This document shows positions 2,546 through 17,059 of a DNA stretch of 17,059 nucleotides, piece by piece. Numbering within the stretch: position 1 is the first letter of the stretch; every line of letters starts with the position of its first letter. The position numbers and the translations under genes are program-made. The notes below the pieces were generated by a model. That model did not search any database and was not told where the DNA came from. It was given only the letters and a program-made list of their open reading frames with translations. The DNA comes from a virus (lineage: Duplodnaviria > Heunggongvirae > Uroviricota > Caudoviricetes): positions 1 to 17,059 of the IMG/VR virus record IMGVR_UViG_2579778535_000004, one strand, 5' to 3'.

Positions 2546-2956
2546 GTGTGCGTTTCTCCTGCTCTATCCTGTTTGCCTGACTGACCAGTAAGGGAATTTC
2601 ACTGATCGGCATATTCAGCAATTCGAAAGGATTAATGCGCCAGTAACTGGCGCAGTCAAAGAAGCGATCAGTGAGGTATTCAGCCGTCAGGCCTGGAGGA
2701 AAAAACCAGCCACAAGCCACGCCGCTGCATTCAGGTCTGCCGGAGACATCTGGTCGACAGAGCTTTGCGGCACTTTCGCCAGCCGCACAATGTATTTCGA
2801 TACCACATGCGCCAGAAGTCTGACGGACTCATCCTGATTCATCTGGTAGGGATACCCCAGCTCGCGGACATCTTTCCCGGTGGGCTCATCAAACTCCAGT
2901 ACGGAGAGTGTCTCGCCATGAGCGGTAATCGGTTTCTTTAACTCAAGCTCTTTCAT
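2538..2956 (-). CDS. Tail assembly chaperone long form made by programmed -1 frameshift
   Basis: The -1 frame from the slippery site (plus-strand A-run 2701-2706) stays open to the stop at 2538-2540 and matches the C-terminal 55 aa of track ORF 2538..2720 (FFPPGLTAEYL...). The product ends 8 nt inside the tape-measure start. This is the arrangement conserved in phage tail chaperone genes. Confidence 0.55.
2687..2956 (-). CDS. Tail assembly chaperone (short product)
   Basis: 89-aa ORF between the tube and tape-measure genes. Its start overlaps the tube stop as TAATG. It ends just after a T TTT TTC slippery run. Confidence 0.75.
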   Translation of the reverse strand: MKELELKKPITAHGETLSVLEFDEPTGKDVRELGYPYQMNQDESVRLLAHVVSKYIVRLAKVPQSSVDQMSPADLNAAAWLVAGFFLQA

Positions 2957-3312
2957 TACTGGTAATCCCCTTCTTCACCGTGGAACTCAAGATCAACCGT
3001 CCCTTCTTCGGCATTATGGTTTGCTTCGCCGTGCAGCCAGGCAGACGACAGTACATAGACCTGACCGTTCGCCAGCTCGGCTGTGATGGTCATCTCATCA
3101 GACGAGGTGATTTTGCTCACCGGAAAATTCTTCGGCACCTTGAAGGTCCCTTTAACATAAGGCGCACGGTGAGTTTCCTTGCGGTCCACTGAACCGTCCA
3201 GGCCGATGATGTCATCATTGACCGTCCTGTTCATGGGCACCTCAATGCCGCCGGTCAGCGATAGCTGCTGACCGTCAATTTTGAAATAACAGGTTCCCCC
3301 GATACGGGCCAT
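2956..3312 (-). CDS. Tail tube protein (Mu gpM-like)
   Basis: 118-aa ORF placed immediately upstream of the chaperone and tape-measure genes. It has an AGGAG ribosome-binding site, and an upstream reading frame ends TAATG on its start. Confidence 0.65.
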   Translation of the reverse strand: MARIGGTCYFKIDGQQLSLTGGIEVPMNRTVNDDIIGLDGSVDRKETHRAPYVKGTFKVPKNFPVSKITSSDEMTITAELANGQVYVLSSAWLHGEANHNAEEGTVDLEFHGEEGDYQ

Positions 3313-3583
3313 TATGCGGACTCCTCTGAATACTGAAGACGGAACTGGTTAACCACGGCAAAGACACGCAACTGGTTAACATAGTCAGGCGGGAACAGCG
3401 TGTTCAGGCGGTTCGGATCGCTGGCATCACGCTCCACAACCAGGTACTGCTTAAAAAGTTCGTAGTTTTCCACGATCCCCGCACGCTCAAGCTGACGGTA
3501 GCGATGGTGTATTGAGGCTGGCTATCTTCCTTCGCGAAGGATGCAAGGTCTTCAAACTGCTTAGCTGTAAGAACCACTGTCAT
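3313..3583 (-). pseudogene. Gene remnant read in two frames, possibly the 3' end of a tail sheath gene at a deletion junction
   Basis: Minus-strand ATG at 3583 opens a 59-codon frame (MTVVLTAKQFEDLASFAKEDSQPQYT...) that stops at 3404. A second frame, open from about 3521, carries protein-like sequence (...ELFKQYLVVERDASDPNRLNTLFPPDYVNQLRVFAVVNQFRLQYSEESA) and ends TAATG on the tube start, but has no ATG. Confidence 0.3.
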
Positions 3584-3595
3584 ACCTCTGTCGTT

Positions 3596-3619
3596 AAAAA
3601 ACCTCGCTATTGCGAGGTT
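3596..3619 (-). terminator. Intrinsic terminator-like hairpin at the end of the lysis cassette
   Basis: Minus strand reads AACCTCGC-AATA-GCGAGGTT followed by TTTT. The Rz1 stop codon lies in the loop. Confidence 0.45.
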
Positions 3620-3864
3620 CGCGATTGCTCAATCGTTCGGATGTCCGCTTTATCTCTGTTACACTGCCCCAGCGCCAACAACAAGCTGACATTCAAATCC
3701 AAACTGCCTCCATAGGTCAGCGGCTCAGGAATAGCTGGTTGCAGTGTTTCAGTGGTCAGATTCGCCGGTAATGGCACCGCTGGAACTGGCACGTAAACTG
3801 TCCGCGTACTTCCGCAACCGGTCAGCAGCGGCAGCAGGCACAGCACGTGAAGCACAATCATCAT
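3607..3864 (-). CDS. o-spanin (Rz1-like outer-membrane lipoprotein)
   Basis: Alternate frame beginning inside the Rz gene: MMIVLHVLCLLPLLTGC with an LTGC lipobox, then a proline-rich stretch. About 38 codons are embedded in Rz and the frame runs on past the Rz stop. Confidence 0.6.
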   Translation of the reverse strand: MMIVLHVLCLLPLLTGCGSTRTVYVPVPAVPLPANLTTETLQPAIPEPLTYGGSLDLNVSLLLALGQCNRDKADIRTIEQSRTSQ

Positions 3865-4141
3865 CCGCAACAGCCATTTTGATATCTTCCTGGGTTCTCT
3901 GTGACTCCAGTGTGCTCTGCTGTTTTGCATGCTGGTTAGCCTCCAGTACTGTATTGACGATTTGCAGTGATTGCAGGACGTTATTGGTAATGGCAGTTGC
4001 CGATTTGGCATTTTGTACAGCCTCATCAGCACGTTTCTTTTCGTGCTGATATTTGCTGTAGTAGTAGTTGGCTGACCAGATGAAAGAACTGACGACAGTA
4101 AAAAGGAAAGCAGCGATAACCAGCTTATAGCTTAACTTCAT
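3749..4141 (-). CDS. i-spanin (Rz-like)
   Basis: 130-aa ORF with an N-terminal transmembrane helix (LVIAAFLFTVVSSFIW) and a charged, helical remainder. It starts within the 3' end of the endolysin gene. Confidence 0.7.
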   Translation of the reverse strand: MKLSYKLVIAAFLFTVVSSFIWSANYYYSKYQHEKKRADEAVQNAKSATAITNNVLQSLQIVNTVLEANQHAKQQSTLESQRTQEDIKMAVADDDCASRAVPAAAADRLRKYADSLRASSSGAITGESDH

Positions 4142-4601
4142 TTACCACCCCACCAGCCTCTTTAAATCGGGCAATCAGGTCACCGATTTTATGTTCATAC
4201 TGACCGTAACCTGCACCAGGTAACGACGCCCAGATATTGCTGCACCGGTCGATTGCCTGACGGATATCGCCGCGATCAATCATCGGTAAAGCACCTCGCT
4301 CTTTAATCTGCTGCAATGCCACTGCGTCCTGGCTTTTGGGGGAGAAGTCTTTCAGAGCAAGCTGTTTACGGTATGCATCCCACCAACGGGAAAGAAGCTG
4401 GTATCGCCCGGCAGCCGTTGATTTGAGTTTTGGGTTCAGCGTGACAAGTTTGCGAGGATGATCGGAGTAATCAGTGAACAGTTCGCCTCCCACAATAACG
4501 TCATAACCGTGGTTACATGTCGGTTGCCGTCCGTTATCAGTTCCTTCTGACCATGCCACCATATCGAGGAAAGCTTTACGCTGGGAATTTAGTACCTGCA
4601 T
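4125..4601 (-). CDS. R: Endolysin, lambda R-like lytic transglycosylase
   Basis: The 158-aa translation is close to identical to lambda R as I remember it (NSQRKAFLDMVAWSEGTDNGRQ...GYDVIVGGELFTDYSDHPR...DRCSNIWASLPGAGYGQ). Confidence 0.9.
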   Translation of the reverse strand: MQVLNSQRKAFLDMVAWSEGTDNGRQPTCNHGYDVIVGGELFTDYSDHPRKLVTLNPKLKSTAAGRYQLLSRWWDAYRKQLALKDFSPKSQDAVALQQIKERGALPMIDRGDIRQAIDRCSNIWASLPGAGYGQYEHKIGDLIARFKEAGGVVNEVKL

Positions 4602-4604
4602 AAA

Positions 4605-4931
4605 TTACTCCTTAGAGCCACCAAACTTATTACCGATTACTCTCATTGCAGCCCCACGAATAGCATCGACACCGATCAACCCAACGCCACCACCAATGGC
4701 AACAGAAAGCGATTTAGGCCATCCGACATACTCAAGAGCGGATGCAAAAGTCAGCGTCAGAGCGCCACAGAGTAGAATTTCGAGTGTTTTTCGCTTCCAG
4801 CCACCACCACCGCCAAAATAGGCAATGCGCAAACCAGCCATAACAATCGACATAATCACTGCGCCCAGCGGTGTGTCTCCACGCCACCAGCTCTGGACCA
4901 ACTCCAGCCAGGTATTTGGGTTATGAGGCAT
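4605..4931 (-). CDS. Holin
   Basis: 108-aa ORF immediately upstream of the endolysin. It has two to three hydrophobic helices and a charged C-terminus, with GAGGTGAGAG upstream of the ATG. Confidence 0.7.
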   Translation of the reverse strand: MPHNPNTWLELVQSWWRGDTPLGAVIMSIVMAGLRIAYFGGGGGWKRKTLEILLCGALTLTFASALEYVGWPKSLSVAIGGGVGLIGVDAIRGAAMRVIGNKFGGSKE

Positions 4932-5082
4932 TTGTAGTTATCTCTCACCTCGCTGATACAGCAGGTGCAAATTGAGGAAACATCATGTACCGCAAATCAG
5001 AAGCGGAAACGTCAAAGAAGCCGAGTCAATGGATAACTGCGGGATAGACCAGGCCCAACGAATCCCTAGGCCCAGAAACGAC

Positions 5083-5105
5083 AAAACCCGCTCGACGGCG
5101 GGTTT
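5083..5105 (-). terminator. Perfect 8-bp-stem hairpin, possible tR'-like terminator of the late leader
   Basis: AAACCCGC-6 nt loop-GCGGGTTT. On the minus strand the stem is followed by TTTTGTCGTTTCT. It sits between the cassette and the holin. Confidence 0.3.
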
Positions 5106-5151
5106 AAGCTGTGTGGCGAAGTAACCACTCTTAACAGATTACAATGATTTT

Positions 5152-5179
5152 TGCGTACGCGTTAGCATTTTCGTAAAAT
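5152..5179 (+). promoter_or_regulatory. Candidate sigma70 promoter for the nuclease-methyltransferase cassette
   Basis: TTGCGT at 5152-5157, a 16-nt spacer, then TAAAAT at 5174-5179, about 30 nt upstream of the ATG at 5211. Found by eye only. Confidence 0.25.
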
Positions 5180-5210
5180 ACATTACCTTGCAACCATTTC
5201 AGTATAAAAA

Positions 5211-7001
5211 ATGAGCACAGAATTAAAACTAAAGAAAATTATGGCATCGTCTAAAATTGAGCCATTTATTAGACATATTCGTTTTCCTTTTTTTAAAAAC
5301 CTTGCAGAGGGTAGCAAGATTGATTTTGAGTATCCAATTACAGCATTAGTTGGTCAAAACGGAACCAATAAAAGTTCTGTTTTAAGAGCCCTATTCGGTT
5401 CTCCAAACAACTATTCTCTGGGTAGCTTATGGTTTTCTACAGATGTAGATGAGATTAAAGATGGTGGTCGTTCTAGATTTATTTATGGATATTATGACAA
5501 AGCTACTGATTCAATTGTTGAAGTAATTAAAACTCGAATCTCTAAAGAAAATGATCCTGATTACTGGGAACCATCCAGACCATTAAAATCCGACAACATG
5601 GCTCCAATGCCTAGTACAACAATCTCAACCAATCAACTAAGGACTAGGTGGAAAGCTATTGACAAAAATGTAATATATTTAGATTTCAGAGCAACTATCA
5701 GTGCATTTGATAAGTTCTTTTATCACTCTGATTTTCATACATACCCTAAGAAAGATTATCTTAGAAAACGCAGTCAGATGCTAAAAGACATTATAGATAA
5801 CGATCTTAAAAAATATCAACCTCATAAAGGAAAAAAAGACAAGCTATTTGTTAACACTTTATTAGAAAAAAGTAAGGTAGAGGCAATCAGCAAGATTTTA
5901 GGTCGCAAATACACAAGCATCCGCCTTATTGAACATAGCTTATTCACTAATGACAAAGCTCCCACAATTATTCTTCAATCAGAAAACTTAAAATATTCTG
6001 AAGCTTTTGCAGGCAGTGGGGAATTTGCTGTATCTATATTAGTGCATAAACTAATGGATAGCCCTGATGCATCTTTAATTCTGCTAGATGAACCTGAAGT
6101 ATCACTTCACCCTTCTGCTCAATGTCAATTGATGGAATTTTTATCAGAACAAGCACTTAAAAAGAAACATCAAATTGTCATATCCACACATTCATCAACA
6201 ATAGTAAAAGACTTGCCTAAAAATGCCATAAAATTATTCTGTCTGAATGATAAAATAGGAAAGGTTGATGTTCTTCAAAATGTCAGTCCAGAAGAATCTT
6301 TCTTTATTCTTGGTGAACGCATTGATAAAAGAACCGTTATTGTAGAAGATCGGTTAGCGAAGAGGTTTGTAGAAAAGGCGCTTAAAGCGGGTGGTGAAGC
6401 ATTATTAAACTCCTTCGAAGTAAAACATGTTCCTGGAGGAGCGGGAAGTATTCTTCAAACTTTGGCTGTGCCTTTATGTGTTGCCAATGTTAAAAACGTT
6501 ATTTTCTTATTAGATGGTGACCAATCGAGAACTGATGATTATCCAACTTCTGATTCCATACCAGAAAATCAAAACACAAACCTTCAAAACATCATAAAAA
6601 AAATAACCAATCAAGATATAAAATTTAGTTGTGATGGTTCTAATGGCTCATCAAATAACAATCAAAAATACAAAATGCAAAGAAATTTTATCGATTTCAT
6701 CCACGATAAAATTGCTTTTCTTCCTGTTTATACTCCTGAAGCATTTCTTATTGAGAATGTTCATGGTGATTATAAAGAATATAAAGATCAAATCCCCAAA
6801 AACATTCAAGATGCTAAAGAAATCACCAAAGAACTTTGTAAGTTAGACACAGGGTTGGAGAACGTTACCAGTGACGATATCTTTGAAACACAAATCAGAA
6901 TTCTTAATAAAATACCAAATAATCATGAAGTGTTAACAAAAACTCGAGAGTTGCTGCAAATCTTTTTAGATAATGATACTATCAGACCAAGAGTGAGGTA
7001 G
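5211..7001 (+). CDS. Predicted OLD/Gabija-GajA-like nuclease: N-terminal ABC-type ATPase fused to a C-terminal TOPRIM domain
   Basis: 596-aa ORF with a P-loop LVGQNGTNKSS, Walker B ILLDEPEVSLHP, a STHS H-loop-like motif, and a C-terminal TOPRIM pattern (TVIVEDRLAKRF...NVIFLLDGDQS, about 60 aa apart). Hand counts give about 27-30% GC here versus about 45-55% in flanking lines. Confidence 0.65.
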   Translation: MSTELKLKKIMASSKIEPFIRHIRFPFFKNLAEGSKIDFEYPITALVGQNGTNKSSVLRALFGSPNNYSLGSLWFSTDVDEIKDGGRSRFIYGYYDKATDSIVEVIKTRISKENDPDYWEPSRPLKSDNMAPMPSTTISTNQLRTRWKAIDKNVIYLDFRATISAFDKFFYHSDFHTYPKKDYLRKRSQMLKDIIDNDLKKYQPHKGKKDKLFVNTLLEKSKVEAISKILGRKYTSIRLIEHSLFTNDKAPTIILQSENLKYSEAFAGSGEFAVSILVHKLMDSPDASLILLDEPEVSLHPSAQCQLMEFLSEQALKKKHQIVISTHSSTIVKDLPKNAIKLFCLNDKIGKVDVLQNVSPEESFFILGERIDKRTVIVEDRLAKRFVEKALKAGGEALLNSFEVKHVPGGAGSILQTLAVPLCVANVKNVIFLLDGDQSRTDDYPTSDSIPENQNTNLQNIIKKITNQDIKFSCDGSNGSSNNNQKYKMQRNFIDFIHDKIAFLPVYTPEAFLIENVHGDYKEYKDQIPKNIQDAKEITKELCKLDTGLENVTSDDIFETQIRILNKIPNNHEVLTKTRELLQIFLDNDTIRPRVR

Positions 7002-7004
7002 ATA

Positions 7005-8045
7005 ATGGCTAAAAAGATACACGTTTACGATTTCTTTTCCGGCTGCGGCGGAACCAGTGTAGGCCTAAAAGCGGTGGGAATGGAAATTATTTTCGGTTTA
7101 GATATTGATCTAGACTCCGCTAACACCTTTAAAATGAATAATCCATTTGCACATTTTATCAATGGTGATATCAAAGATACACACGTTGAGGAAATTAAGC
7201 ATCTGGTTTGTGCGTCAACACAAAGCAAAGCTCTAACCCTATTTTGTGGTTGTGCTCCATGTCAACCATTCTCGAAACAAAATAAAATACGGAACGAGGA
7301 TGATCCGAGAAAAGATCTGCTTACTGAGTTTGCACGGTTTGTCTCTTATTATACGCCAGACTTTGTACTGGTAGAGAATGTACCAGGAATCCAAAATGTC
7401 GATATTAACAATGGAAATTTCCAGAAATTTCTTGAGATTTTAGCACATCATCACTACAACGTTGATTTTGGTGTGATTCCTGCGTTGTGGTTCGGGGTTC
7501 CTCAAACACGTGAACGTTTTGTTTTACTGGCGTCAAAACACACGAATATTAAGCTTCCATCACAAACTCATGATGGGTTAAAAACTCCGTATGCAACTGT
7601 CAGAGACTGGATCGGCGGATTACCTCCTATTGCTGCCGGTGAAACTCATAAAGATGTTATGGATCATACAGCAGCCAAACTATCTGATCTAAATATTAAA
7701 CGTATTAAAGCGACTCCTGAGGGAAAAGGTAGAGAATCTTGGCCTGAAGAACTTATACTAAAATGCCATAAAAAATATAAAGGGCATACTGATGTTTATG
7801 GACGGCTTTCTTGGGACAAACCAGCAAGTGGATTAACAACTAGATGTATAAGCTATTCGAATGGACGTTTCGGACATCCAGAGCAAGATAGGGCTATTTC
7901 TGTTAGAGAGGCTGCGTTATTACAGACTTTCCCATTAGACTATTCCTTCACAGGCTCTTTAGTCTCGAAAGCCAAACAGATAGGGAATGCAGTCCCTCCC
8001 AAGATGGCTGAAGCTCTTGGAAGGGCTATCATCGCATCACTTTAA
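7005..8045 (+). CDS. DNA (cytosine-5)-methyltransferase
   Basis: Motif I FSGCGG, motif IV GCAPCQPFS with the catalytic Cys, motif VI LVENVPG, motif VIII PQTRERF, motif X QIGNAVPP, in canonical order. The ATG is 4 nt after the upstream stop, so the two genes are probably co-translated. Confidence 0.9.
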   Translation: MAKKIHVYDFFSGCGGTSVGLKAVGMEIIFGLDIDLDSANTFKMNNPFAHFINGDIKDTHVEEIKHLVCASTQSKALTLFCGCAPCQPFSKQNKIRNEDDPRKDLLTEFARFVSYYTPDFVLVENVPGIQNVDINNGNFQKFLEILAHHHYNVDFGVIPALWFGVPQTRERFVLLASKHTNIKLPSQTHDGLKTPYATVRDWIGGLPPIAAGETHKDVMDHTAAKLSDLNIKRIKATPEGKGRESWPEELILKCHKKYKGHTDVYGRLSWDKPASGLTTRCISYSNGRFGHPEQDRAISVREAALLQTFPLDYSFTGSLVSKAKQIGNAVPPKMAEALGRAIIASL

Positions 8046-8055
8046 AAGCGGAGCC

Positions 8056-8412
8056 CTAGAGGGCTTCGCCTAACAATAATAGAATACCTGATATAAACCC
8101 TATAGCTCCCTGAAGCTCTTTTCTAATTGCTCCATCAGAGCATTTTCTTTTCTTAGCAATGGTGCGTAATGAGATACCAATCACAAAATGAGCAATGATC
8201 AGCTCATATTCTTCTGGTTTATACTTCCGCAGGCGGGCGACACAGCCATCAATCATGATGCCTTCATCATCATCACACTGAATCCGGGACTTTCTGCCAT
8301 GAGGTAAAAGCCCCTTGAAGCCAGCGGCTACCGGTTGCCAATCCACACCACTGTTCTCTGCCGCAGCCCACGCTCCCCAACGGTCTAATACTTCATACAT
8401 ATCACACATCAA
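8056..8412 (-). CDS. Late-gene antiterminator Q (Phage_antitermQ family)
   Basis: 118-aa protein with VLDRWGAWAA...AAGFKGL...CDDDEG...C, matching the Q family of several lambdoid prophages as I recall it. It sits between the nin-like genes and the lysis region. Confidence 0.8.
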   Translation of the reverse strand: MMCDMYEVLDRWGAWAAAENSGVDWQPVAAGFKGLLPHGRKSRIQCDDDEGIMIDGCVARLRKYKPEEYELIIAHFVIGISLRTIAKKRKCSDGAIRKELQGAIGFISGILLLLGEAL

Positions 8413-8426
8413 CTTTCTCCACCAAA

Positions 8427-9422
8427 TCAGGCTAGCACACCAATTGCCAACGCACGGTCGATAAAACGAAATATCAGCTCCAGCTGGGAGCCATACTTCT
8501 CTTCAAATGCCACGGTATCCGCATGCAGCTCGTCGTGATGCTTTCTGCACAAAGGCAACACAAAGAGGTCATGCGCTTTTGTACCCATTCCGCCCTGACC
8601 GTGGCCTATCAGGTGGTGGGGATCATCAGCAGGTTTTCCACAACATGCGCACGGCTGCGTCTTAACCCAGCGCGTGTACTTTTCATTAACCCAGCGGTGA
8701 CGTTTTGGGCGTAACATAAAAGACTCCGGCGACTCCGGATCCACTTTCAGCGCCAGCACCTTTTTCGCCTTATCCTGGATGATGCTGGTGGCAGGAACCG
8801 AAGGCACAAGGTCACTTTCCCGGGTAACAGACGGCACAACAGGCTTCGGTAATCTCAGTGCCTTACGGGCTGCACTTTCCGGTAAGGCATCCGCCAGATC
8901 ATTACGAATCAGCCACCAGCACAGTTCCGGCATTGTCACAACATGACTGTCATCAAAACCGAGATCCCGACGCACAACAGACAACACCCAGCGGGCACAG
9001 TTATCCGTTGCCATTGATTCCAGCCGTTCCGTGAACTGATCGCGCAGCTGGTTATCGCAGTGCCAGCACAGACGGATTGCGCCCGGAGCGTGTCGCATTG
9101 TTGTCATGTTCTCGCTGTGCCAGTCGGAATGAGGCCACTGGCAGCCTTTTTCACGAAGTAACCAGCTTTCAAGACATTCCACGCCACCAGCACGACGGAT
9201 CACTGCCTCATTGCGGAACACGGCCAGAACGGCAGGATCATCCGCCAGCGGTTGTGATGCCGCCGGAACAGCACCACTGGCGAAAGATGAATAACGTTCC
9301 GGCTCAGGCTCCAGCAGGACACGCCCCTGCATAAACAGGGGCATCAGCTCTGAACCTGGTCTGAACAATACGATCCCCATACGCGGGGCAATTTCAGGGG
9401 TCAGTAGTGCTCTCACGGTCAC
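8427..9422 (-). CDS. DUF968-family phage protein with an HNH-like zinc-finger C-terminus
   Basis: 331-aa ORF whose C-terminus reads CACCGKPADDPHHLIGHGQGG...LPLCRKHHDELH. Its position next to Q matches the usual placement of DUF968 genes in lambdoid prophages. Confidence 0.7.
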   Translation of the reverse strand: MTVRALLTPEIAPRMGIVLFRPGSELMPLFMQGRVLLEPEPERYSSFASGAVPAASQPLADDPAVLAVFRNEAVIRRAGGVECLESWLLREKGCQWPHSDWHSENMTTMRHAPGAIRLCWHCDNQLRDQFTERLESMATDNCARWVLSVVRRDLGFDDSHVVTMPELCWWLIRNDLADALPESAARKALRLPKPVVPSVTRESDLVPSVPATSIIQDKAKKVLALKVDPESPESFMLRPKRHRWVNEKYTRWVKTQPCACCGKPADDPHHLIGHGQGGMGTKAHDLFVLPLCRKHHDELHADTVAFEEKYGSQLELIFRFIDRALAIGVLA

Positions 9423-9423
9423 C

Positions 9424-10233
9424 TCAATGAACGGTATCGAGCAGCTTTAACAGCTCAGGGAATCGGGATTCGAAGAAATGCGGCTGCGTCTCGCGCGGAT
9501 TTGCGGGACTGGTGATGTTCTTGCCGAACATGCAGCCTTTCGCTGTCAGTGACCAGAATTTTTTGATGTTGTTAATCGCGGTACGGCTGTATCGTTCGCG
9601 CTGCTCGACGATCCCCAGTTTCACCATCTGGTGATATGCCTGATTAGCCGTCAGGCGGATACCATACTGTTTCAGCAGTGCACTCAGTGACAGTGTCGGG
9701 CGACTTGAGCCATCGTGTGCATCAGCAGGAGCATCAATGGCATAGCGCGGTGCCAGATTCGGTAAGCCAACAGCCTCCTGGAGTTTCTGACAGGCACCAA
9801 GCACTGAAGAGTTAGACAGGTTTAACTCCCTGCGCATAAAGTCCAGCAGAATCACTCCAGCCTGCATCTTGTCAGCAGCCTGCCCGGATAATTTTTCCGA
9901 TGCGCTGGTTACCATATCGAAAGTACGGATCACCTTCAGATGGAATGACGGGCTGATCCACATTGCATAGGCATACACCAGTTCTTTGCAGACATACGTC
10001 CCCTGGTTATTTCCGCCATTAATGACGCTAACTGGTTGATTTTGTTCCAGAGGTGGAATTCCACCCTCGGTGAAAAGTTGTTCAATCAATTCACAGGTTT
10101 GCTTATTGGAGAGCCAGTATTTCGGGCGGTTTTTTTGTTCTCCCCCGGCTGCCCTGTGCAGATCGTTCAGGCTGTAACGCCCATAAGCATCACGACGAAC
10201 TTCAATACCATCAATGACCATCAGATTATTCAT
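9424..10233 (-). CDS. KilA-N domain protein (antirepressor-like)
   Basis: The N-terminus MNNLMVIDGIEVRRDAYGRYSLNDLHRAAGG...KYWL is a typical KilA-N domain. The internal ATG at 10231-10233 is preferred over the track start because AGGAG lies about 7 nt upstream. Confidence 0.7.
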   Translation of the reverse strand: MNNLMVIDGIEVRRDAYGRYSLNDLHRAAGGEQKNRPKYWLSNKQTCELIEQLFTEGGIPPLEQNQPVSVINGGNNQGTYVCKELVYAYAMWISPSFHLKVIRTFDMVTSASEKLSGQAADKMQAGVILLDFMRRELNLSNSSVLGACQKLQEAVGLPNLAPRYAIDAPADAHDGSSRPTLSLSALLKQYGIRLTANQAYHQMVKLGIVEQRERYSRTAINNIKKFWSLTAKGCMFGKNITSPANPRETQPHFFESRFPELLKLLDTVH

Positions 10234-10252
10234 ACTTCGTTTCTCCTCTTGA

Positions 10253-10642
10253 TCAGGCGGCTGCACCCGCCGTTTTCTCGTACTTACTGATAGTGATCTC
10301 GACCTTCCCTTCCGGGATAACCGGTCCCCACTCCACCAGCATTCTTTTCACCTGACTGTCGTCTTCCCACACACCCGCGTGGGTCAGGGCGTCAAACAGC
10401 GCCTTGTTATAGTTGTCCAGATCGCGGATCCGGTTATCCGGAGGAAACAACACGATCTCCACTGAAGCAGGTGCCGACGTTGGTTTTGGCAGACGACGTA
10501 ACTGCTCAACTATTGCTGCACACGCCGCGCTCTGGAATTTGCGCCCCGCCGCGCTTATCAGGCTCTTACCTGCAAACGCCCCTTGGTTGGGGTGTCGCCA
10601 GTACGTGTTCACGCTGGGCGGAAAAGGCAGTATTAGCTTCAT
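10253..10642 (-). CDS. rusA: RusA-family Holliday junction resolvase
   Basis: 129-aa protein with LPFPPSVNTYWRH...RDLDNYNKALFDALTHAGVWEDDSQV, the RusA signature. Its start forms an ATGA overlap with the upstream gene. Confidence 0.85.
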   Translation of the reverse strand: MKLILPFPPSVNTYWRHPNQGAFAGKSLISAAGRKFQSAACAAIVEQLRRLPKPTSAPASVEIVLFPPDNRIRDLDNYNKALFDALTHAGVWEDDSQVKRMLVEWGPVIPEGKVEITISKYEKTAGAAA

Positions 10643-10965
10643 ACTTTCAGCTCCCTCTCATGTAACCAGTGGGCTGCACGCAGCCTGGCGTTTTCCTCAC
10701 CGGCAAGCAGTGAGCGGATAATCCCGACCGCCTCGCTGTCGTCGTCCTTCACCGCGGTATGAAGCGTTATCCCCCGGGCCACGCCACGCTTTATCGTGAT
10801 GACGCCTTTTTTCTCCAGTGCGCGAAGATGCTCCACCGCTGCATTCACTGAACGGTATCCCAGCATGGTTGCCACCTCCTGATTGGTTGGCGGAAAGCCA
10901 CGCTCTTTCTGGTAAGAAATCAGCATATCCAGCACCTGCTGCTGGCATTGAGTTAACGTCGTCAT
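10639..10965 (-). CDS. LexA-like N-terminal DNA-binding domain protein with no peptidase domain
   Basis: MTTLTQCQQQVLDMLISYQKERGFPPTNQEVATMLGYRSVNAAVEHLRALEKKGVI parallels the LexA winged-helix domain. The start at 10963-10965 is chosen because it overlaps the upstream stop as TAATG. Confidence 0.6.
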   Translation of the reverse strand: MTTLTQCQQQVLDMLISYQKERGFPPTNQEVATMLGYRSVNAAVEHLRALEKKGVITIKRGVARGITLHTAVKDDDSEAVGIIRSLLAGEENARLRAAHWLHERELKV

Positions 10966-11459
10966 TACGCCCCCACGTAATTCCCTGACAGATACCACTC
11001 ATCACTCGATACAGCGCGCTTGCTGCTTTTCCGTAAACACTGCTCACGACGCGCCAGAAAATTGTTTCGTTCTGGCTGGGAGTGGCTTTCACGGAATGCC
11101 ACCACCCACACCGTTGCAGCACGACGGTATAAGCCCCTGGACTCCAGTTCTTCCGCCTGGCGGGTCAGGCACAAAATCTCCCGCGGGTCGTTAGTGCCGA
11201 CATAGAAATTGCGCACAGGTCTGGTTTCACGAACTGATTGCGGTTCCGCCTCCTGCGCTCTCTCAGTCAGGCGCGGGAAATGTCTGCGTGTATCCCCTTC
11301 ACAACGGTGAGCCACACGACCACTCTGACGTAACTTGCTTGCTGACTGCAGAACGCGCTGCCGTGAGTAACCTGCAAAAGCATCCGCAATGTCTCCGGAA
11401 GTACACCCCGGATGGGCTTCAATGAATTTCTGAACGTCATTCAAAAGACTCATGCTCAC
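10965..11459 (-). CDS. Putative PerC/Pch-like regulator
   Basis: The C-terminal half has RGLYRRAATVWVVAF...ARREQCLRKS, resembling the GLWRRAA-RW motif of PerC-family activators. This is a memory-based call and unverified. Confidence 0.4.
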   Translation of the reverse strand: MSMSLLNDVQKFIEAHPGCTSGDIADAFAGYSRQRVLQSASKLRQSGRVAHRCEGDTRRHFPRLTERAQEAEPQSVRETRPVRNFYVGTNDPREILCLTRQAEELESRGLYRRAATVWVVAFRESHSQPERNNFLARREQCLRKSSKRAVSSDEWYLSGNYVGA

Positions 11460-12397
11460 CCCCTGAATCCTGCCGGGATCTGGCTGTAGTCCACGTTGTC
11501 GTAACTGGCTTTGAAGTACGGGTCTTCGCGTTTTTCGGTGTACGTGCTGACGGACGGCGATAAGCGCAGGGAAAGCTCATCCCATTTTTCCCGCAGCTTC
11601 GACGGGCTGAGCACGTTACGGCACCAGAACGGATCGCGACTGACGCGGCTGTACATCTCGCAGATTTGTTTATGAGTACGACCATCCTGCACACACATCA
11701 GGCGAATTTCGTTTGCCCAGGCTGTCCAGTTCGGTTCTTTGGGACGAACCACCTCGCCGTCACATTCGGCGGCCTGCTCGTACAGGGCGATGATTTTTTT
11801 CCAGAGCCACTGTGCGCAGGTCAAATCATCCTGCGTTCCCCACTGGCGCTTTTTAGGGCTGAATACAACCGCATCAGGATGGCGAGTTAAAAACTCCTGT
11901 TCAGCCGTCTGCGTGTCCGGTTGCGAAGCGTCCGGACGAGAAGTTTTTTTATCTGACGGATCATGTTTTGATTTTACTGACGGATCCCCGCCAGATTCTG
12001 ACGGGTGAAAACCCGCTTTTTTGCCAGATTTCGACGCATCAAATTTTGACGGGTCAGATTTTGATGCGTCAGATTTTGACGGGTCAGAATCTGACAGTTG
12101 AGAAAATGCCGCTGCCTGAAGCTTCGCAACGTTAAGCTGATAAACATTCGACGCATTGCGGTTACCCTGGCGACGCGCCTTACGCGTTAACCAGCCTTCT
12201 GCTTCCAGCCGTGCGATAGCCGTCCTGACGGTACTCATCCCCGCGCCAATCTGACGGGCAATAGTTTCAATTGATGGCCAGCACACACCTTCGTCATTAC
12301 TGAAATCAGCCAGGCGGGCCATAATTGCCACGCTGGATAATTTCATGCCTGATGCAGCGCAACCATCCCATACATAGCCGGTTAATTTAGTGCTCAT
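11456..12397 (-). CDS. Replication initiator-like protein (N-terminal HTH domain, repeat-encoded linker, C-terminal domain)
   Basis: 313-aa ORF with an N-terminal winged-helix region and a central SKSD-type peptide repeat encoded by tandem DNA repeats. It occupies the position of a lambdoid O gene after the cro and CII-like genes. Confidence 0.55.
   Translation of the reverse strand: MSTKLTGYVWDGCAASGMKLSSVAIMARLADFSNDEGVCWPSIETIARQIGAGMSTVRTAIARLEAEGWLTRKARRQGNRNASNVYQLNVAKLQAAAFSQLSDSDPSKSDASKSDPSKFDASKSGKKAGFHPSESGGDPSVKSKHDPSDKKTSRPDASQPDTQTAEQEFLTRHPDAVVFSPKKRQWGTQDDLTCAQWLWKKIIALYEQAAECDGEVVRPKEPNWTAWANEIRLMCVQDGRTHKQICEMYSRVSRDPFWCRNVLSPSKLREKWDELSLRLSPSVSTYTEKREDPYFKASYDNVDYSQIPAGFRG
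11948..12098. repeat. Tandem 15-bp direct repeats (iteron-like) inside the replication initiator gene
   Basis: Five contiguous 15-bp units between 12024 and 12098 (TCAGATTTTGACGGG and variants), plus three degenerate copies back to 11948. They encode the linker of the initiator. Confidence 0.55.
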
Positions 12398-12406
12398 GAC
12401 CGACCT

Positions 12407-12745
12407 CTATTTCCCTGAATTTACGACGAAACTGTTCGAGCGGACTGAAGCACTCATGCTCATAGCCTTCGCGGAGGTAGATAACCCGTTGTGTTTCCGG
12501 TTCCCAACGAATGACTCTGACGGGCACTCCGTAGTGATCTTTGAACCAGCGGTTAACTTGTCGCAAAGGACTGTCTCCTTCTGCCGGTTGAAATCACCCA
12601 CAGCCCACTCTGCAAAGCTGTGGGTTACAATTTCCCTGTCACCTGGTACATTTACTGCATAGCAATACTCCACCTTCGCTTTTCCACCCGGTACAGGAAG
12701 CGCAATCAGTTGCGAGCGACGGTAGTGTGTTGTTAAACTGTTCAT
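12407..12745 (-). CDS. Hypothetical phage protein with an ambiguous 3' reading frame (possible frameshift)
   Basis: The N-terminal half ([53 protein letters not shown]) looks protein-like. The Ser-rich tail of the listed frame looks less so than an alternative frame (12387-12593, ...[56 protein letters not shown]) that ends overlapping the next gene's start. Confidence 0.4.
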
Positions 12746-13305
12746 GCGTTAGTTTCTCCACAGTCACGACACGCCACGGCGCCCGGAGCTGCACACTCGC
12801 GGGCGTCATTACTTTCTGAAATGCAAAAGATTTTGTAGACCAGTGCTGCATGCTCCTGCAGCTTCGAAATTGAGAGATATAGCTCGTCGTTAATTGCTGT
12901 TTTCTCATGCGGTTCCACTACACCGTCTTCGATTGCTGAACGAATCTGTTTTGAATAACTGCCGATCTGTTCAATGACTTCCAGCAGACGCTGGTTAATA
13001 TCGGCGTTGTCCACATCCTCGACGTCAGGAAGAGACACAAATACGCCATTTGCAGACTGCGCCACAGCATCAGCAATGAAGTGAGTGCCACCAGCACGCT
13101 GTAAAACCATTGCCCATCCCAGCGGAAAAATCTGATCGCCATCTGCACGAAGGCGGTTGAATAAAGCGTTCTCTGTTACATCCAGCCAGTCAGCCGCTTC
13201 AGCGTAACCACCCGGCAACGCCGCGATAGTTTTTCTGACAGCTTTCACGTACCACTCAGGCTGTTTTTCTATTTTCCAGTGATGCTTACCCACGATTAGC
13301 CTCAT
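12742..13305 (-). CDS. Putative CII-like regulatory protein
   Basis: 187-aa ORF immediately downstream of the cro-like gene. The family assignment is from weak remembered similarity and position only. Confidence 0.4.
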
Positions 13306-13336
13306 CGTTCTGTGGTTAAAAATTGAAAGTGTTCTG

Positions 13337-13537
13337 CTAATCTTTCGGATAGATATCCGGTCTTAAGTCAGATTTCGTAATTGCACCTGACGTGCATTGC
13401 TCAAGTTTTTTAGCCAGCACAAAACTGGCTTTTTTATAGCCATTGAAAACCAGCCGTAAGTAGCCAGGTGTTGAGCCAACTTTTCCGGCCAACTCGCCCT
13501 GCTGTTCTTTGGTTAAAGAGTCCCAATACGCTTTCAT
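13337..13537 (-). CDS. Cro-like HTH regulator (YdaS-type)
   Basis: MKAYWDSLTKEQQGELAGKVGSTPGYLRLVFNGYKKASF...SDLRPDIYP. GGAGG lies 9 nt upstream of the ATG at 13535-13537. It is divergent from the CI-like gene. Confidence 0.65.
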   Translation of the reverse strand: MKAYWDSLTKEQQGELAGKVGSTPGYLRLVFNGYKKASFVLAKKLEQCTSGAITKSDLRPDIYPKD

Positions 13538-13591
13538 ACAATATGTACCTCCGGTGTACATACTACATGATTAAAATGAACCTTCAAGATA

Positions 13592-13612
13592 CTTGTACCT
13601 TAACGGTACAAG
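13592..13612. promoter_or_regulatory. Palindromic operator in the CI/cro divergent promoter region
   Basis: CTTGTACC-TTAAC-GGTACAAG, with perfect 8-bp arms, overlapping a candidate plus-strand promoter (TTGTAC, 17 nt, TTTAAT) whose start site would fall at the CI ATG. Confidence 0.5.
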
Positions 13613-13627
13613 GGTTTTAATTTCGTT

Positions 13628-14302
13628 ATGAAAACAATCCATGACATCCGGCGGTCTAACGCCAGAAAACTGAGAGATGGTGTAGGCGGGAATTCTTCCT
13701 TTGCCACTATGATTGATCGCGAGCCAACCCAGACCAGCAGGTTTATGGGAGATGGTGCTACTAAAAATATCGGTGACAGCATGGCACGACACATCGAAAA
13801 ATGTTTCGACCTGCCTGTCGGATGGCTCGATCAAGAACACCAGACAACCAACATCACAAAAAAACCTGATGTTTCAATCACTAATAAACAAATCACATTA
13901 GTCCCTGTCATATCATGGGTACAGGCCGGAGCATGGAAAGAAGTTGGATATTCTGAGGTTGATTTGAGCACAGCAGAAACGTATCCCTGCCCTGTACCCT
14001 GTGGGGAAATGACTTATATCTTGCGGGTGATAGGTGATTCAATGATTGATGAGTACCGCCCGGGAGACATGATTTTTGTCGATCCTGAAGTACCTGCCTG
14101 CCACGGTGACGACGTTATTGCATTGATGCACGATACAGGTGAAACCACCTTCAAAAGGTTGATAGAAGATGGGACACAGCGTTATCTCAAAGCGTTAAAC
14201 CCAAACTGGCCTGAGCCTTACATTAAGATCAACGGTAATTGCTCTATAATTGGAACTGTGATTTTCTCAGGAAAACCAAGAAGATACAAAATCAAAGCCT
14301 AA
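13628..14302 (+). CDS. CI-like repressor (HTH plus S24 LexA-type autopeptidase domain)
   Basis: 224-aa ORF with an N-terminal HTH, an Ala-Gly cleavage site (VQAGAWKE), the catalytic Ser in VIGDSM and a Lys in TFKRL. Confidence 0.85.
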   Translation: MKTIHDIRRSNARKLRDGVGGNSSFATMIDREPTQTSRFMGDGATKNIGDSMARHIEKCFDLPVGWLDQEHQTTNITKKPDVSITNKQITLVPVISWVQAGAWKEVGYSEVDLSTAETYPCPVPCGEMTYILRVIGDSMIDEYRPGDMIFVDPEVPACHGDDVIALMHDTGETTFKRLIEDGTQRYLKALNPNWPEPYIKINGNCSIIGTVIFSGKPRRYKIKA

Positions 14303-14314
14303 TCAATGTTTATG

Positions 14315-14337
14315 AACCTGCTTCGGCAGGTTTTTTT
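14315..14337 (+). terminator. Rho-independent terminator after the repressor gene
   Basis: AACCTGC-TTCG-GCAGGTT followed by a run of seven T. Confidence 0.65.
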
Positions 14338-14341
14338 ATAC

Positions 14342-14374
14342 TTGACAATGTACCTTTGAGATACATAATGTATC
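14342..14374 (+). promoter_or_regulatory. pL-like promoter with an overlapping palindrome (candidate operator)
   Basis: TTGACA at 14342-14347, a 16-nt spacer, then CATAAT at 14364-14369. The palindrome GATACAT-A-ATGTATC (14360-14374) covers the -10. Confidence 0.4.
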
Positions 14375-14473
14375 CAAGAGAAACAAAAAACAGGCAGGAC
14401 GCCCACGAAGTAGCCGCCGGTGGCGTATGAATGACCGGATGATTCGTTAAATACTATGTGTAAGAGAGCGCAA

Positions 14474-14677
14474 ATGAACCGTTATTTCACATGCTCGTTT
14501 TGTGGCGCAAACGAGCTGCAGGCAAAAAAAATCATCGCCAAAGGCGGAAAAGATGAAGTTGCTATCTGCTCTGAGTGCGTAGTCTTGTGTGTCGGGGCAT
14601 TAATCAATATCAGCACAACTATTCAGTTCACACCAAATGAGAATGCGCCTTTAGATGCGCGGAAATCTGGAGGTTAA
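14474..14677 (+). CDS. Small zinc-ribbon protein resembling the ClpX N-terminal zinc-binding domain
   Basis: FTCSFCGANELQAKKIIAKGGKDEVAICSECVVLC parallels the ClpX zinc-binding domain (CSFCG ... ICDECV-LC). The start is taken at the internal ATG at 14474, preceded by AGAGAG. Confidence 0.5.
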   Translation: MNRYFTCSFCGANELQAKKIIAKGGKDEVAICSECVVLCVGALINISTTIQFTPNENAPLDARKSGG

Positions 14678-14685
14678 AGAACAAA

Positions 14686-14961
14686 ATGAAAGTCCAGATT
14701 TTAAACAATAGTGGTGAAGTCGTTTGGTCATACGACATAGCCGCTCCTGTAGATCAGAGCGGCGATAGCTGGACCAATGGGAAACATCAGATTATGGCTG
14801 GAGTTGTGTTCTCTTTACGCCGTGCTTTAGAACAGGCTGAAGTCTTTCCATCAGACCCTGAATGGAAATGGCCTTTTTCTATTTGTCCAAATTCGGAGAG
14901 TACATTTCAGAAAATTGGTCAGAAAGTCGCACTCGAAGAGCATCAGCCAACTGTTTCCTGA
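14686..14961 (+). CDS. Hypothetical protein, second gene of the left operon
   Basis: 91-aa ORF with GGAGG about 12 nt upstream. Its 3' end overlaps a convergent ORF by about 83 nt. Confidence 0.45.
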   Translation: MKVQILNNSGEVVWSYDIAAPVDQSGDSWTNGKHQIMAGVVFSLRRALEQAEVFPSDPEWKWPFSICPNSESTFQKIGQKVALEEHQPTVS

Positions 14962-15124
14962 TTTTTTCAGGTAACTCGTCGGCATCGCAGAAACAACAAC
15001 GCTCGATCATGTTGAAAGCCGATTCGTAGAACTGTTTTTGCTGAGTGTCGCTGAGACAGGAAAAGAGCGACGTTACGATGATTTTATTAATTGCATTATC
15101 AAGTTCTTTTTCATCAAAAGTCAT
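14879..15124 (-). CDS. Hypothetical protein, convergent with the left operon
   Basis: 81-aa ORF with AAGGA about 8 nt upstream of the ATG at 15122-15124 and protein-like composition. Confidence 0.45.
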   Translation of the reverse strand: MTFDEKELDNAINKIIVTSLFSCLSDTQQKQFYESAFNMIERCCFCDADELPEKIRKQLADALRVRLSDQFSEMYSPNLDK

Positions 15125-15378
15125 TTGATTTTCCTTTTATGTATACGGGCTTAAAAGGATACCACCGAGCCTGAAGTGGTGAAAAGACAGGCACATAACA
15201 GCTAAGTATTTTCAACCAGAGAGAATCCTTAGCGTTGTGGTGAATGCGGCTCAGCGCACACGGGTTAAGGTTGAGGCTGACAGTCGACCTTCTGTGGATA
15301 CCCACCCGCCTGGTGTGCAACCTTCGCCAGGCACCGGGAGGCACCCGGCACCACAACTTTATGCTGTGTGTAGTCTTA

Positions 15379-15423
15379 GCGGTACCAGCTTGTACCCTTG
15401 CTTCCGGCTGGTACCGTCCTTTT
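15379..15423 (+). terminator. Terminator-like hairpin inside an ORF-poor GC-rich region
   Basis: CGGTACCAGC-17 nt loop-GCTGGTACCG followed by TCCTTTTT. The loop contains CTTGTACC, identical to the operator half-site at 13592-13599. Confidence 0.35.
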
Positions 15424-15637
15424 TACAAAACAGAGAAGAGCATCACCGGACGACGGGCTCATAACCCAATCCATCCGGGCGGCTGCCACCGCAGGTGTTC
15501 TTCTCTGTTTTGTGGAGAAACTAACCGCCCCTACGGGGGCATTTATGGAAATGTAATTGACTCAATAATCGCCGGACGGTGAGGGCTTCCTTTTACCCGA
15601 ATTCAGCGCGGTGCAGCGCATATACGTGGAGAACAAA

Positions 15638-16174
15638 ATGTCATTTATTAAAACTTTTTCCGGGAAGCATTTTTATTATGACAGGATAAATAAAGACGAC
15701 ATCGTTATTAACGATATCGCGGTTTCCCTTTCAAATATCTGTCGCTTTGCAGGACATCTTTCACACTTCTACAGTGTCGCCCAACATGCGGTGCTTTGCA
15801 GCCAGCTGGTGCCACAGGAATTTGCTTTTGAAGCTTTAATGCATGATGCAACAGAAGCATATTGCCAGGACATCCCCGCACCACTGAAACGACTTCTTCC
15901 TGACTATAAACGGATGGAAGAAAAAATAGACGCCGTAATACGTGAGAAATACGGGTTACCTCCTGTTATGAGCACGCCAGTGAAATATGCCGATCTCATT
16001 ATGCTGGCAACCGAACGCCGCGATCTCGGGCTTGATGATGGCTCTTTCTGGCCTGTACTGGAAGGTATCCCGGCAACAGAGATGTTCAAAGTGATTCCAC
16101 AGGTACCGGGCCATGCCTACGGGATGTTTATGGAACGTTTTAACGAGTTATCGGAGTTACGCAAATGCGCATGA
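15638..16174 (+). CDS. HD-domain phosphohydrolase
   Basis: H...HD metal-binding pattern (SVAQHAVLCSQL ... ALMHDATEAY). The start is taken at the ATG at 15638, with GGAGAA 8 nt upstream. Confidence 0.7.
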   Translation: MSFIKTFSGKHFYYDRINKDDIVINDIAVSLSNICRFAGHLSHFYSVAQHAVLCSQLVPQEFAFEALMHDATEAYCQDIPAPLKRLLPDYKRMEEKIDAVIREKYGLPPVMSTPVKYADLIMLATERRDLGLDDGSFWPVLEGIPATEMFKVIPQVPGHAYGMFMERFNELSELRKCA

Positions 16175-16527
16175 ATGTTTTCGAAATGGAAGGGTTTCTT
16201 CGTGGGAGATGTGTACCGCGAGATCTGAAAGTGAATGAAACAGATGCTGAATACCTGGTGCGTAAATTCGATGCGCTTGAAGCTAAATGTGCAGCACAGG
16301 AAAACAAAGTAATACCAGTGTCAACTGAACTGCCACCAGCAAATGAAAGTGTTTTGTTATTCGATGCTAACGGAGAAGGCTGGCTAATTGGCTGGCGTTC
16401 TCTCTGGTACACCTGGGGACAAAAAGAAACCGGAGAATGGCAGTGGACATTTCAGGTCGGGGACCTTGAAAACGTCAATATCACTCACTGGGCAGTAATG
16501 CCAAAAGCACCGGAGGCTGGAGCATAA
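16165..16527 (+). CDS. DUF551-like phage protein
   Basis: 120-aa ORF ending ...GEWQWTF...ITHWAVMPKAPE, reminiscent of DUF551. GGAG lies about 10 nt upstream. Confidence 0.45.
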   Translation: MRMNVFEMEGFLRGRCVPRDLKVNETDAEYLVRKFDALEAKCAAQENKVIPVSTELPPANESVLLFDANGEGWLIGWRSLWYTWGQKETGEWQWTFQVGDLENVNITHWAVMPKAPEAGA

Positions 16528-16832
16528 TGACCACTTTTACCGACAAAGAACTGATTAAAGAAATTAAAGAGCGTATCAGCAGCCTTGACGTGCGAGACGA
16601 TATTGAGCGCCGTGCTTATGAAATCGCACTCCTATCTCTGGAAGTAGAACCAGATGAACGCGAAGCTTATGAATTATTCATGGAAAAGCGTTTCGGTGAC
16701 TTAGTAGATCGTCGGAGAGCAAAAAACGGCGATAACGAATACATGGCATGGGATATGACTCTCGGTTGGATCGTCTGGCAGCAACGAGCAGGTATCCATT
16801 TTTCAACAATGTCACAACAAGAGGTGAAATAA
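16527..16832 (+). CDS. Hypothetical phage protein
   Basis: 101-aa ORF whose ATG overlaps the upstream stop, with GGAGG about 12 nt upstream. Confidence 0.5.
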   Translation: MTTFTDKELIKEIKERISSLDVRDDIERRAYEIALLSLEVEPDEREAYELFMEKRFGDLVDRRRAKNGDNEYMAWDMTLGWIVWQQRAGIHFSTMSQQEVK

Positions 16833-17059
16833 TGGAGCCATACAGCCTCACACTCGATGAGGCCTGTCATTTTCTCAAGATATCCAGACCGACTGCCATT
16901 AACTGGATACGCACAGGGCGTCTTCAGGCAACACGCAAAGATCCCACTAAGAATAAATCTCCTTACCTCACAACACGACAAGCCTGCATTGCGGCTCTTC
17001 AGTCTCCGCTGCATACTGTCCAGGTGAGCGCGGGTGATGGCATAACAGAGGAAAGAAAA
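16832..17059 (+). CDS. xis: Excisionase-like protein, partial (open to the window end)
   Basis: MEPYSLTLDEACHFLKISRPTAINWIRTGRLQATRKDP is the winged-helix excisionase pattern. GAGGTG lies upstream of the ATG at 16832. No stop is reached within the window. Confidence 0.6.
   Translation, partial: MEPYSLTLDEACHFLKISRPTAINWIRTGRLQATRKDPTKNKSPYLTTRQACIAALQSPLHTVQVSAGDGITEERK

Follow-up and report, generated by a model that had tools for sequence, protein, structure and literature searches.

A probable OR control region of the e14/SfV immunity type, with five predicted operator sites and a leaderless repressor transcript

Bacteriophage lambda and the locus described here share a general plan, in which the cI and cro genes are divergent, three 17-bp dyads (predicted in the present case) occupy OR and a second operator cluster lies at pL. 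In both, a weak middle site (again predicted here) centred at about −42/−43 from pRM overlaps the pR −35 element, the cI mRNA is leaderless and is made from a weak pRM, and the repressor has an S24 C-terminal domain with the Ala-Gly, Ser and Lys residues. The two differ in several respects. The N-terminal domain of the repressor and the operator sequence are unrelated to those of lambda, and the predicted operator centres are 33 and 17 bp apart, compared with 24 and 23 bp in lambda. The best-matching site overlaps the cI −35, whereas OR3 of lambda is the weakest CI site. There appear to be two sites in OL, where lambda has three, and the rex genes are lacking, so that OR and OL are only ~755 bp apart. 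CI and Cro use common operators in lambdoid switches. The lambdoid switch of the Shiga-toxin phage 933W has three OR but only two OL operators; its repressor specificity and operator sequence differ from those of the present module.

The DNA analysed here, hereafter the window, is a stretch of 17,059 nucleotides (positions 1 to 17,059 of the IMG/VR virus record IMGVR_UViG_2579778535_000004). Its region 13300–14480 has ~98% nucleotide identity to the ymfT-ymfK region of prophage e14 of Escherichia coli K-12 MG1655, 97.5–98.8% identity over the module to phages SfV, SfIV, PhiR29 and PhiR49, and ~95% identity to Stx2c-converting phages. The e14 genes cohE (ymfK) and croE (ymfT) and the cI-cro genes of SfV and SfIV constitute the same module, with the same terminator, pL and predicted operators, and with cI, cro and intergenic DNA all near-identical to those of the window. 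The CI protein is 100% identical to that of SfIV. No N gene has been reported for SfV or SfIV. Of 5426 complete E. coli genomes, 2105 (~39%) contain the module. The window differs from e14 in its setting: e14 is a decayed element, and the window module lies in a larger lambdoid prophage, for which RefSeq lists a Q antiterminator, lysis genes and a P27-family terminase. Downstream of pL, the window has a gene for a ClpX-type zinc-finger protein in place of the ymfJ/ymfI genes of e14. In a 99.9% identical genome, RefSeq annotation names the genes ymfT, ymfK and ymfL. The window also encodes an intact YmfM, which is without annotation in the near-identical RefSeq record, and there are iteron-like repeats inside its replication gene.

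The spacer between the divergent genes is very probably the OR control region of this e14/SfV-type lambdoid immunity module, and a scheme of five operator sites in OR and OL forms part of that joint best explanation. An earlier note, made from the sequence of the window, had drawn attention to a palindromic operator and an apparently leaderless repressor transcript in the spacer. Both features are already on record for identical sequence, through the operator annotation of SfV and the transcription start site (TSS) maps of K-12. The GenBank record of SfV marks a 'putative operator region' at the equivalent of window positions 13543–13611 and a terminator after cI, and the record of phage Ayreon has a promoter annotated at the equivalent of 14341–14368 and an annotated cI terminator. 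A lambda-like control region and a leaderless repressor mRNA are confirmed here for a very common E. coli/Shigella immunity type, both points being present in databases and papers. The present analysis adds a map of five predicted operators and a consensus, TGTACC-N5-GGTACA, that spans Enterobacterales to a Pseudomonas phage. The features are as follows, with offsets given relative to the cI ATG.

13337–13537, minus strand: cro-like gene, homologue of ymfT/croE, 66 aa, YdaS-family HTH (ORF list, Pfam, and RefSeq ymfT at the same coordinates)
13544–13560, no strand assigned: predicted operator B (OR1-like), TGTACCTCCGGTGTACA, 1 mismatch, offset −84, over the pR −10/+1 and the cro Shine–Dalgarno sequence
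13560–13587, minus strand: predicted pR for cro, read from sequence, −35 TTGAAG (13587–13582), 16-bp spacer, −10 TAGTAT (13565–13560)
13577–13593, no strand assigned: predicted operator C (OR2-like, weak), TGAACCTTCAAGATACT, 3 mismatches, offset −51, over the pR −35
13593–13628, plus strand: pRM-like cI promoter, −35 TTGTAC (13593–13598), 17-bp spacer, −10 TTTAAT (13616–13621), +1 at 13628 (sequence, and a published TSS on identical sequence)
13594–13610, no strand assigned: predicted operator A (OR3-like), TGTACCTTAACGGTACA, 0 mismatches, offset −34, over the cI −35 and promoter spacer
13628–14302, plus strand: cI-like repressor gene, homologue of ymfK/cohE, 224 aa, N-terminal HTH and S24 autoprotease domain with A100-G101, S138 and K176 (ORF list, Pfam, PDB, alignment)
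14314–14340, plus strand: intrinsic terminator of the cI transcript (hairpin covaries and T-run is kept in homologues; SfV and Ayreon annotations)
14342–14369, plus strand: pL-like early-left promoter, TTGACA (14342–14347), 16-bp spacer, CATAAT (14364–14369) (11/12 match; Ayreon annotation)
14349–14365, no strand assigned: predicted operator L1, TGTACCTTTGAGATACA, 1 mismatch, offset +721, in the pL spacer
14369–14385, no strand assigned: predicted operator L2 (weak), TGTATCCAAGAGAAACA, 3 mismatches, offset +741, over the pL +1, 20 bp from L1

The 224-aa protein has the sequence of a self-cleaving phage repressor, with an N-terminal HTH followed by a C-terminal domain that matches Peptidase_S24 in Pfam (E 1.5e-26). 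This C-terminal domain is 35% identical to that of lambda CI (PDB match, E 1.9e-9), and the two proteins have in common the VQAG cleavage motif (A100-G101), the GDSM motif with the active-site serine (S138) and the TFKRL motif with the lysine (K176). The N-terminal domain shows a weak match to phage repressor PDB 5d50 (E 0.0018). The 66-aa protein has sub-threshold Pfam matches to YdaS_toxin (E 1.5e-5) and to HTH_3. Together with the RefSeq names ymfK and ymfT, these matches confirm the divergent CI-like and cro-like genes that had been read from the sequence. The next gene after cro on the minus strand encodes a YmfL-family, CII(CP76)-like regulator.

The repressor and cro genes lie around a single operator-promoter spacer of 90 bp (13538–13627). 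The earlier note had placed the intergenic region at 13562–13627, and the left edge of that interval is wrong. A cro start at the ATG at 13561, which would give an ORF of 74 aa, was considered and rejected, as it is out of frame in the homologues, and both RefSeq and a conserved Shine–Dalgarno sequence (GGAGG, 13552–13548) favour a start at the ATG at 13537. The misplaced edge explains why the strong putative operator B (13544–13560) was missed, having been taken as coding sequence. Compared with MG1655, the 90-bp spacer has only two base differences, at 13563 (C here, T in K-12), which makes the pR −10 TAGTAT here and TAATAT in K-12, and at 13573 (A here, G in K-12). From 13574 through the cI ATG, the window and MG1655 are identical.

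The inverted repeat at 13592–13612, previously described as a perfect 21-bp palindrome, reads CTTGTACC-TTAAC-GGTACAAG. Its 8-nt arms are indeed perfect (100% complementary) and flank a 5-nt centre, TTAAC, which is asymmetric, so that 9 of the 10 symmetric pairs match. Its core is site A, the best match of all sites. Copies of the pattern TGTAC-N7-GTACA are present at 13544–13560 and 13594–13610 and, with one mismatch, at 14349–14365. The refined core TGTACC-N5-GGTACA has three matches at ≤1 mismatch in 17 kb, compared with 0.04 expected, and none of 200 shuffled sequences reached three. The search for further copies of the half-site that the note had proposed yields four other positions: motif scans gave B and L1, and comparison of homologues added C and L2. 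The idea of one isolated operator is rejected on these results. The description of the palindrome as an operator finds support in the comparative evidence and was incomplete, the palindrome being one of three putative OR sites, to which two in OL are added. Tandem copies of the dyad thus lie over both promoters of the spacer, with a second cluster at pL, a pattern drawn from sequence and comparative conservation, and binding of these sites by protein is predicted on the same basis. Full-text literature searches with the operator sequences returned no match, and searches of the literature gave no footprint, EMSA or ChIP record for YmfK or YmfT.

Sixteen homologous loci from other Enterobacterales, with CI proteins 73–88% identical to that of the window, were used for comparison. 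Every one of the 16 has site B at −84 or −85 relative to the cI ATG, site A at −34 or −35 (14 with 0 mismatches) and L1 at about +721 (range +719 to +748). Putative site C is present at −51 with ≤2 mismatches in 10 of the 16, and its left half, TGAACC, is invariant throughout; L2 is likewise found in 10 of 16 at +740 or +741 with ≤2 mismatches. Within the window, C and L2 (three mismatches each) are individually at chance level, and they are proposed as candidate sites from their conserved positions, a conservation that may in part reflect common descent and overlap with promoter elements. In the strong sites of the homologues, almost no change is seen in the half-sites, whereas the central 5 bp are free to vary. 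At site A, for example, 14 distinct 5-bp central sequences occur amongst the 17 loci, between half-sites that are essentially invariant. The other conserved parts of the spacer correspond to the cro Shine–Dalgarno sequence (inside B), the pR −10, TGAACC, the TTG of each of the two −35 elements and the TAAT of the cI −10.

A second, shorter palindrome had been reported next to the first at 13585–13595, CAAG-ATA-CTTG, and it is present there as CAAGATACTTG. An independent role for it as an operator, such as a Cro site, is rejected; its conserved parts are explained by overlapping elements, namely GATACT (which is the right half of site C), the nucleotide C immediately before site A, and the TTG sequences that stand back to back in the divergent −35 hexamers. 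The Pantoea homologue breaks the left arm (AAAG).

The variation amongst homologues also bears on whether the inverted repeat acts as DNA or as RNA. A terminator scan lists 13592–13612 as an 8-bp stem, four of its pairs being GC, and a loop of 5 nt, followed by GGTTTTAATT, and on this evidence it could be a plus-strand hairpin or intrinsic terminator, for instance one stopping antisense transcripts across cro, instead of an operator. Such a role is very unlikely. The arms of site A show no compensatory change across the 16 homologues, whereas the hairpin of the real cI terminator (14314–14333) covaries. The T-rich tail is not kept either, GAATGTCTAAT, CACTGTTTAAT and similar sequences being found in the homologues, so that the compensated stem and conserved U-run of an intrinsic terminator are both missing at the site flagged by the scan. 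In addition, the motif recurs at four other positions without a T-run, including one inside the pL spacer. Invariant arms, a free centre and a lack of covariation are the signature of a protein-binding dyad and not of an RNA hairpin. The protein in question might be a host factor, since e14 genes are SOS-inducible and the palindromes could be SOS boxes for LexA or another host regulator, with induction running directly through LexA. This is extremely improbable. The sites (TGTACC-N5-GGTACA) do not match the LexA box CTGT-N8-ACAG, and induction outside LexA repression has been described in the literature on SfiC+/ymfM. The prophage has an S24 repressor of its own, in which cleavage site and catalytic dyad are intact, and the motif tracks the recognition helix of that repressor as far as Pseudomonas.

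The last point comes from Pseudomonas phage vB_Pae_BR133a, in which the first 71 residues of the repressor are 59% identical to those of the window CI and the C-terminal part is without significant similarity. The recognition helix is REPTQVSR in BR133a and REPTQTSR in the window, and the cI-cro spacer of BR133a contains TGTACCTCCTGGGTACA at −85, a weak TGTACCGTCAAGGTTCT at −51 and TGTACATTTCTGGTACA at −34, as well as AAT 6 nt before the cI ATG. The operator motif is missing from distant homologues (Comamonas, Variovorax, Ralstonia phage Hennie), whose recognition helices differ; where dyads are visible in them, these are different ones, such as TTAGC-N5-GCTAA, which occurs twice in the Comamonas locus. 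The Cro of BR133a is also homologous to that of the window (33% identity), and the comparison therefore ties the motif to the immunity type, with CI, Cro or both as its reader. If the Cro-like protein were the main reader of the motif, or if Cro bound A and CI the other sites, the flagged palindrome would not be a repressor operator. Site A lies over the cI −35, where Cro-type shut-off of cI would be expected; BR133a keeps the CI N-terminal domain, Cro and the motif together; and CI and Cro have dissimilar recognition helices (TQTSRFM and PGYLRLVF, respectively). This explanation is nonetheless unlikely, as the motif is also present in the pL spacer and over the +1 of pL and of pR, positions at which the maintenance repressor has to act. 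Genes on the pL and pR sides are co-repressed in K-12 lysogens and co-induced under stress, and the regulator expressed in the lysogen is CI and not Cro. Sharing of operators by CI and Cro in lambdoid switches would, moreover, make the two readings compatible. Recognition of the sites by CI, with Cro presumably acting on them as well, is the interpretation followed below.

The promoters of the region differ in strength. A consensus promoter scan with a threshold of 9/12 returned nothing in OR in either the window or K-12. The weak −35/−10 pair that the earlier note described as overlapping the palindrome does exist; it scores 8/12 and places +1 on the repressor ATG. The putative pR also scores 8/12, with a predicted +1 at ~13552–13555, and its assignment is suggested by conservation, the TTG and a TAATAT-like hexamer being kept in the homologues. 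At the other end of the module, just beyond the cI terminator, the strong, near-consensus pL-like promoter is invariant in all homologues, with a predicted +1 at ~14376.

That the repressor mRNA would be leaderless, as had been proposed from the sequence, was a correct inference and is borne out by published mapping of e14 in K-12. In a dRNA-seq study of MG1655, ymfK has a class I TSS on the first base of the gene, with a leader length of 0, and is one of five leaderless E. coli mRNAs, three of which are for prophage regulators (PMC4681348, including Table S3). A later study using Rend-seq ends lists cohE with known leaderless genes (PMC8794815). The 5′ end of the repressor mRNA called for in the note is thus available for K-12 as the A of the ATG, within the stretch (13574 through the ATG) in which the window is identical; transcription of cI from a weak promoter with its +1 at this A has been shown experimentally for the identical K-12 sequence. 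There is no in-frame start codon upstream of 13628, the frame opening only after a stop at 13601–13603, and no Shine–Dalgarno sequence before the cI ATG is conserved across the homologues. In all 16, TAAT (AAT in every case) is placed 6 nt before the cI ATG (7 nt in L020), and the 6 nt between vary freely. The N-terminal residues of CI are part of the conserved DNA-binding domain. The racR (Rac) and dicA (Qin) mRNAs, from two other K-12 prophage switches, likewise start at or ≤3 nt from the start codon in the same dRNA-seq study. RacR and DicA differ from the present repressor in being short XRE-type proteins without an S24 autoprotease domain, and their operators are unrelated.

Relative to the cI start, site A extends from −34 to −18, taking in the −35, and C from −51 to −35 (centre −43), with B centred at −76. 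Relative to the putative pR, B would span −7 to +10, C −40 to −24 (over the −35) and A −57 to −41. At pL, L1 spans −27 to −11 and L2 −7 to +10, the latter being placed as B is at pR. These positions suggest how the switch might work. In the lysogen, the early operons of pR and pL would be turned off by CI dimers bound to B (with C) and to L1 (with L2). Occupation of A would limit transcription of cI itself, either as negative autoregulation or as a target of Cro, and CI bound at C, centred at −43, may activate the weak cI promoter in the way that lambda CI acts from OR2. Repression would be released, and the prophage induced, by RecA-stimulated self-cleavage at Ala100-Gly101, after which Cro would presumably act on the same sites to shut down cI. 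Operator occupancy, the order in which the sites fill and activation are all inferred parts of this model.

Some features of the locus argue for caution in extending the analogy with lambda. A lambda-style order of occupancy may not apply, because transcription of cI takes place in K-12 lysogens even though the best site, A, covers the cI −35. Centre-to-centre distances are 17 bp (~1.6 helical turns) for C and A and 33 bp for B and C, and since these spacings differ from the 23–24 bp of lambda, cooperativity and activation are uncertain. Dimers on C and A would be roughly on opposite faces of the helix, their centres being only 17 bp apart. Putative site C, weak and conserved and centred at −43 from the cI start, directly abuts the strong site A that covers the cI −35. 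Its weakness is maintained in the different species, and site B, near pR, lies three helical turns away. It is conceivable, though on balance doubtful, that the switch logic differs from that of lambda, for example through an A-C tetramer with tight negative autoregulation, through a short OR-OL loop of ~755 bp, or through an A site preferred by Cro. If so, any such alternative would replace the OR1-OR2 cooperativity and OR2-dependent activation of the lambda type.

Published expression data from K-12 can be set beside the predicted map. Exposure to HgCl2 co-induced ymfJ, the first gene on the pL side, together with croE, ymfL and ymfM on the pR side, by 49- to 185-fold (PMC5769350). The pL-side ymfJ and pR-side croE-ymfL-ymfM also belong to a single iModulon, whose activity is highest on H2O2 challenge or in the absence of Fur (PMC10602906). 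Co-induction of the two sides fits a single cleavable repressor holding both promoters through a shared operator. SfiC+/YmfM, the division inhibitor of e14, is SOS-inducible without being repressed by LexA, and control by the CI-like repressor has been assumed for it. The operator map could guide footprinting of YmfK and YmfT, and could help in interpreting the 'YmfT iModulon' and the SOS-inducible division block by YmfM, for which the link between repressor and operator has so far been assumed.

Downstream of pL, a 59-nt element in the pL leader (14390–14448) is a conserved structured RNA, and is a more interesting by-product of the analysis than the immunity switch. Searches of Rfam and a full-text sequence search of the literature gave no match to it. 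Its identification as a homologue of HK022 put is not supported, as its covariance model gives no match in the HK022 immunity region. One stem of the element shows clear compensatory changes. In ST64B, ZF40 and an Aeromonas phage the element is also conserved, there lying downstream of repressor genes that are unrelated; a T5-like Providencia phage has it in its terminal repeat, and it is found in at least 63 IMG/VR contigs.

The leader of the pL-like promoter, which lies downstream of the cI-like repressor gene, contains a conserved element predicted to be structured. The features of this region are as follows:

14390–14448, + strand: conserved structured element of 59 nt, ACAGGCAGGACGCCCACGAAGTAGCCGCCGGTGGCGTATGAATGACCGGATGATTCGTT, within the pL leader
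14456–14677, + strand: first gene past pL, encoding a ClpX-type C4 zinc-finger protein (Pfam E 1.4e-10)
15237–15556, + strand: frameshifted pseudogene, as annotated in RefSeq

The 59 nt element is present as a single copy within the window. Among the phage records checked, it is also found about 100–170 nt downstream of unrelated repressor genes in ST64B, Pectobacterium ZF40 and Aeromonas pAEv1818, and a T5-like Providencia phage carries it in the terminal repeat as well. Searched with a covariance model built from the element, 80 IMG/VR loci gave hits in 63 cases (46 distinct sequences); the loci had been chosen by the exact pattern GCCCACGAAGTAGC, and conservation of that stretch is therefore partly by construction. 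In the predicted structure, paired cells amount to 89–95%, and the observed value was reached by none of 500 shuffles. One 5 bp stem shows compensatory changes at four of its five pairs; the unpaired stretches CACGAAGUAGC, GCAUAYGAA and GAUGA are near-invariant.

Neither Rfam nor a full-text literature search with the sequence of the element gave a match. The N gene is reported to be absent from SfV and SfIV, and for this reason we propose, as a hypothesis, that the element may, as RNA, act in cis to modify transcription elongation. Its function would be analogous to that of HK022 put; homology is not claimed, as comparison with the HK022 put region revealed no match. The zinc-finger protein encoded next is 73 aa in length, compared with an annotated 67 aa, and its gene occupies the position held in K-12 e14 by ymfJ/ymfI.

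To the left of the repressor gene, three further features were identified:

11456–12397, − strand: HTH_36/DnaD-like replication gene
12025–12088, within this gene: tandem repeat, 4.3 copies of the 15 bp unit CAGATTTTGACGGGT
12407–12745, − strand: full-length YmfM ORF, 96% identical to K-12 YmfM

The 15 bp repeats resemble origin iterons embedded in an initiator gene, an arrangement similar to that of lambda O. K-12 YmfM inhibits cell division and is SOS-inducible. The ORF encoding its homologue is unannotated in the near-identical RefSeq record, which has an overlapping DUF4222 gene (12387–12566) in a different frame.

A distant homologue of the repressor N-terminal domain, in Comamonas terrae (locus L023), has a different recognition helix. 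The dyad TTAGC-N5-GCTAA, unlike that of the window, occurs twice in the spacer upstream of this homologue (about 1427–1480). This pairing is consistent with an operator that changes jointly with the recognition helix.
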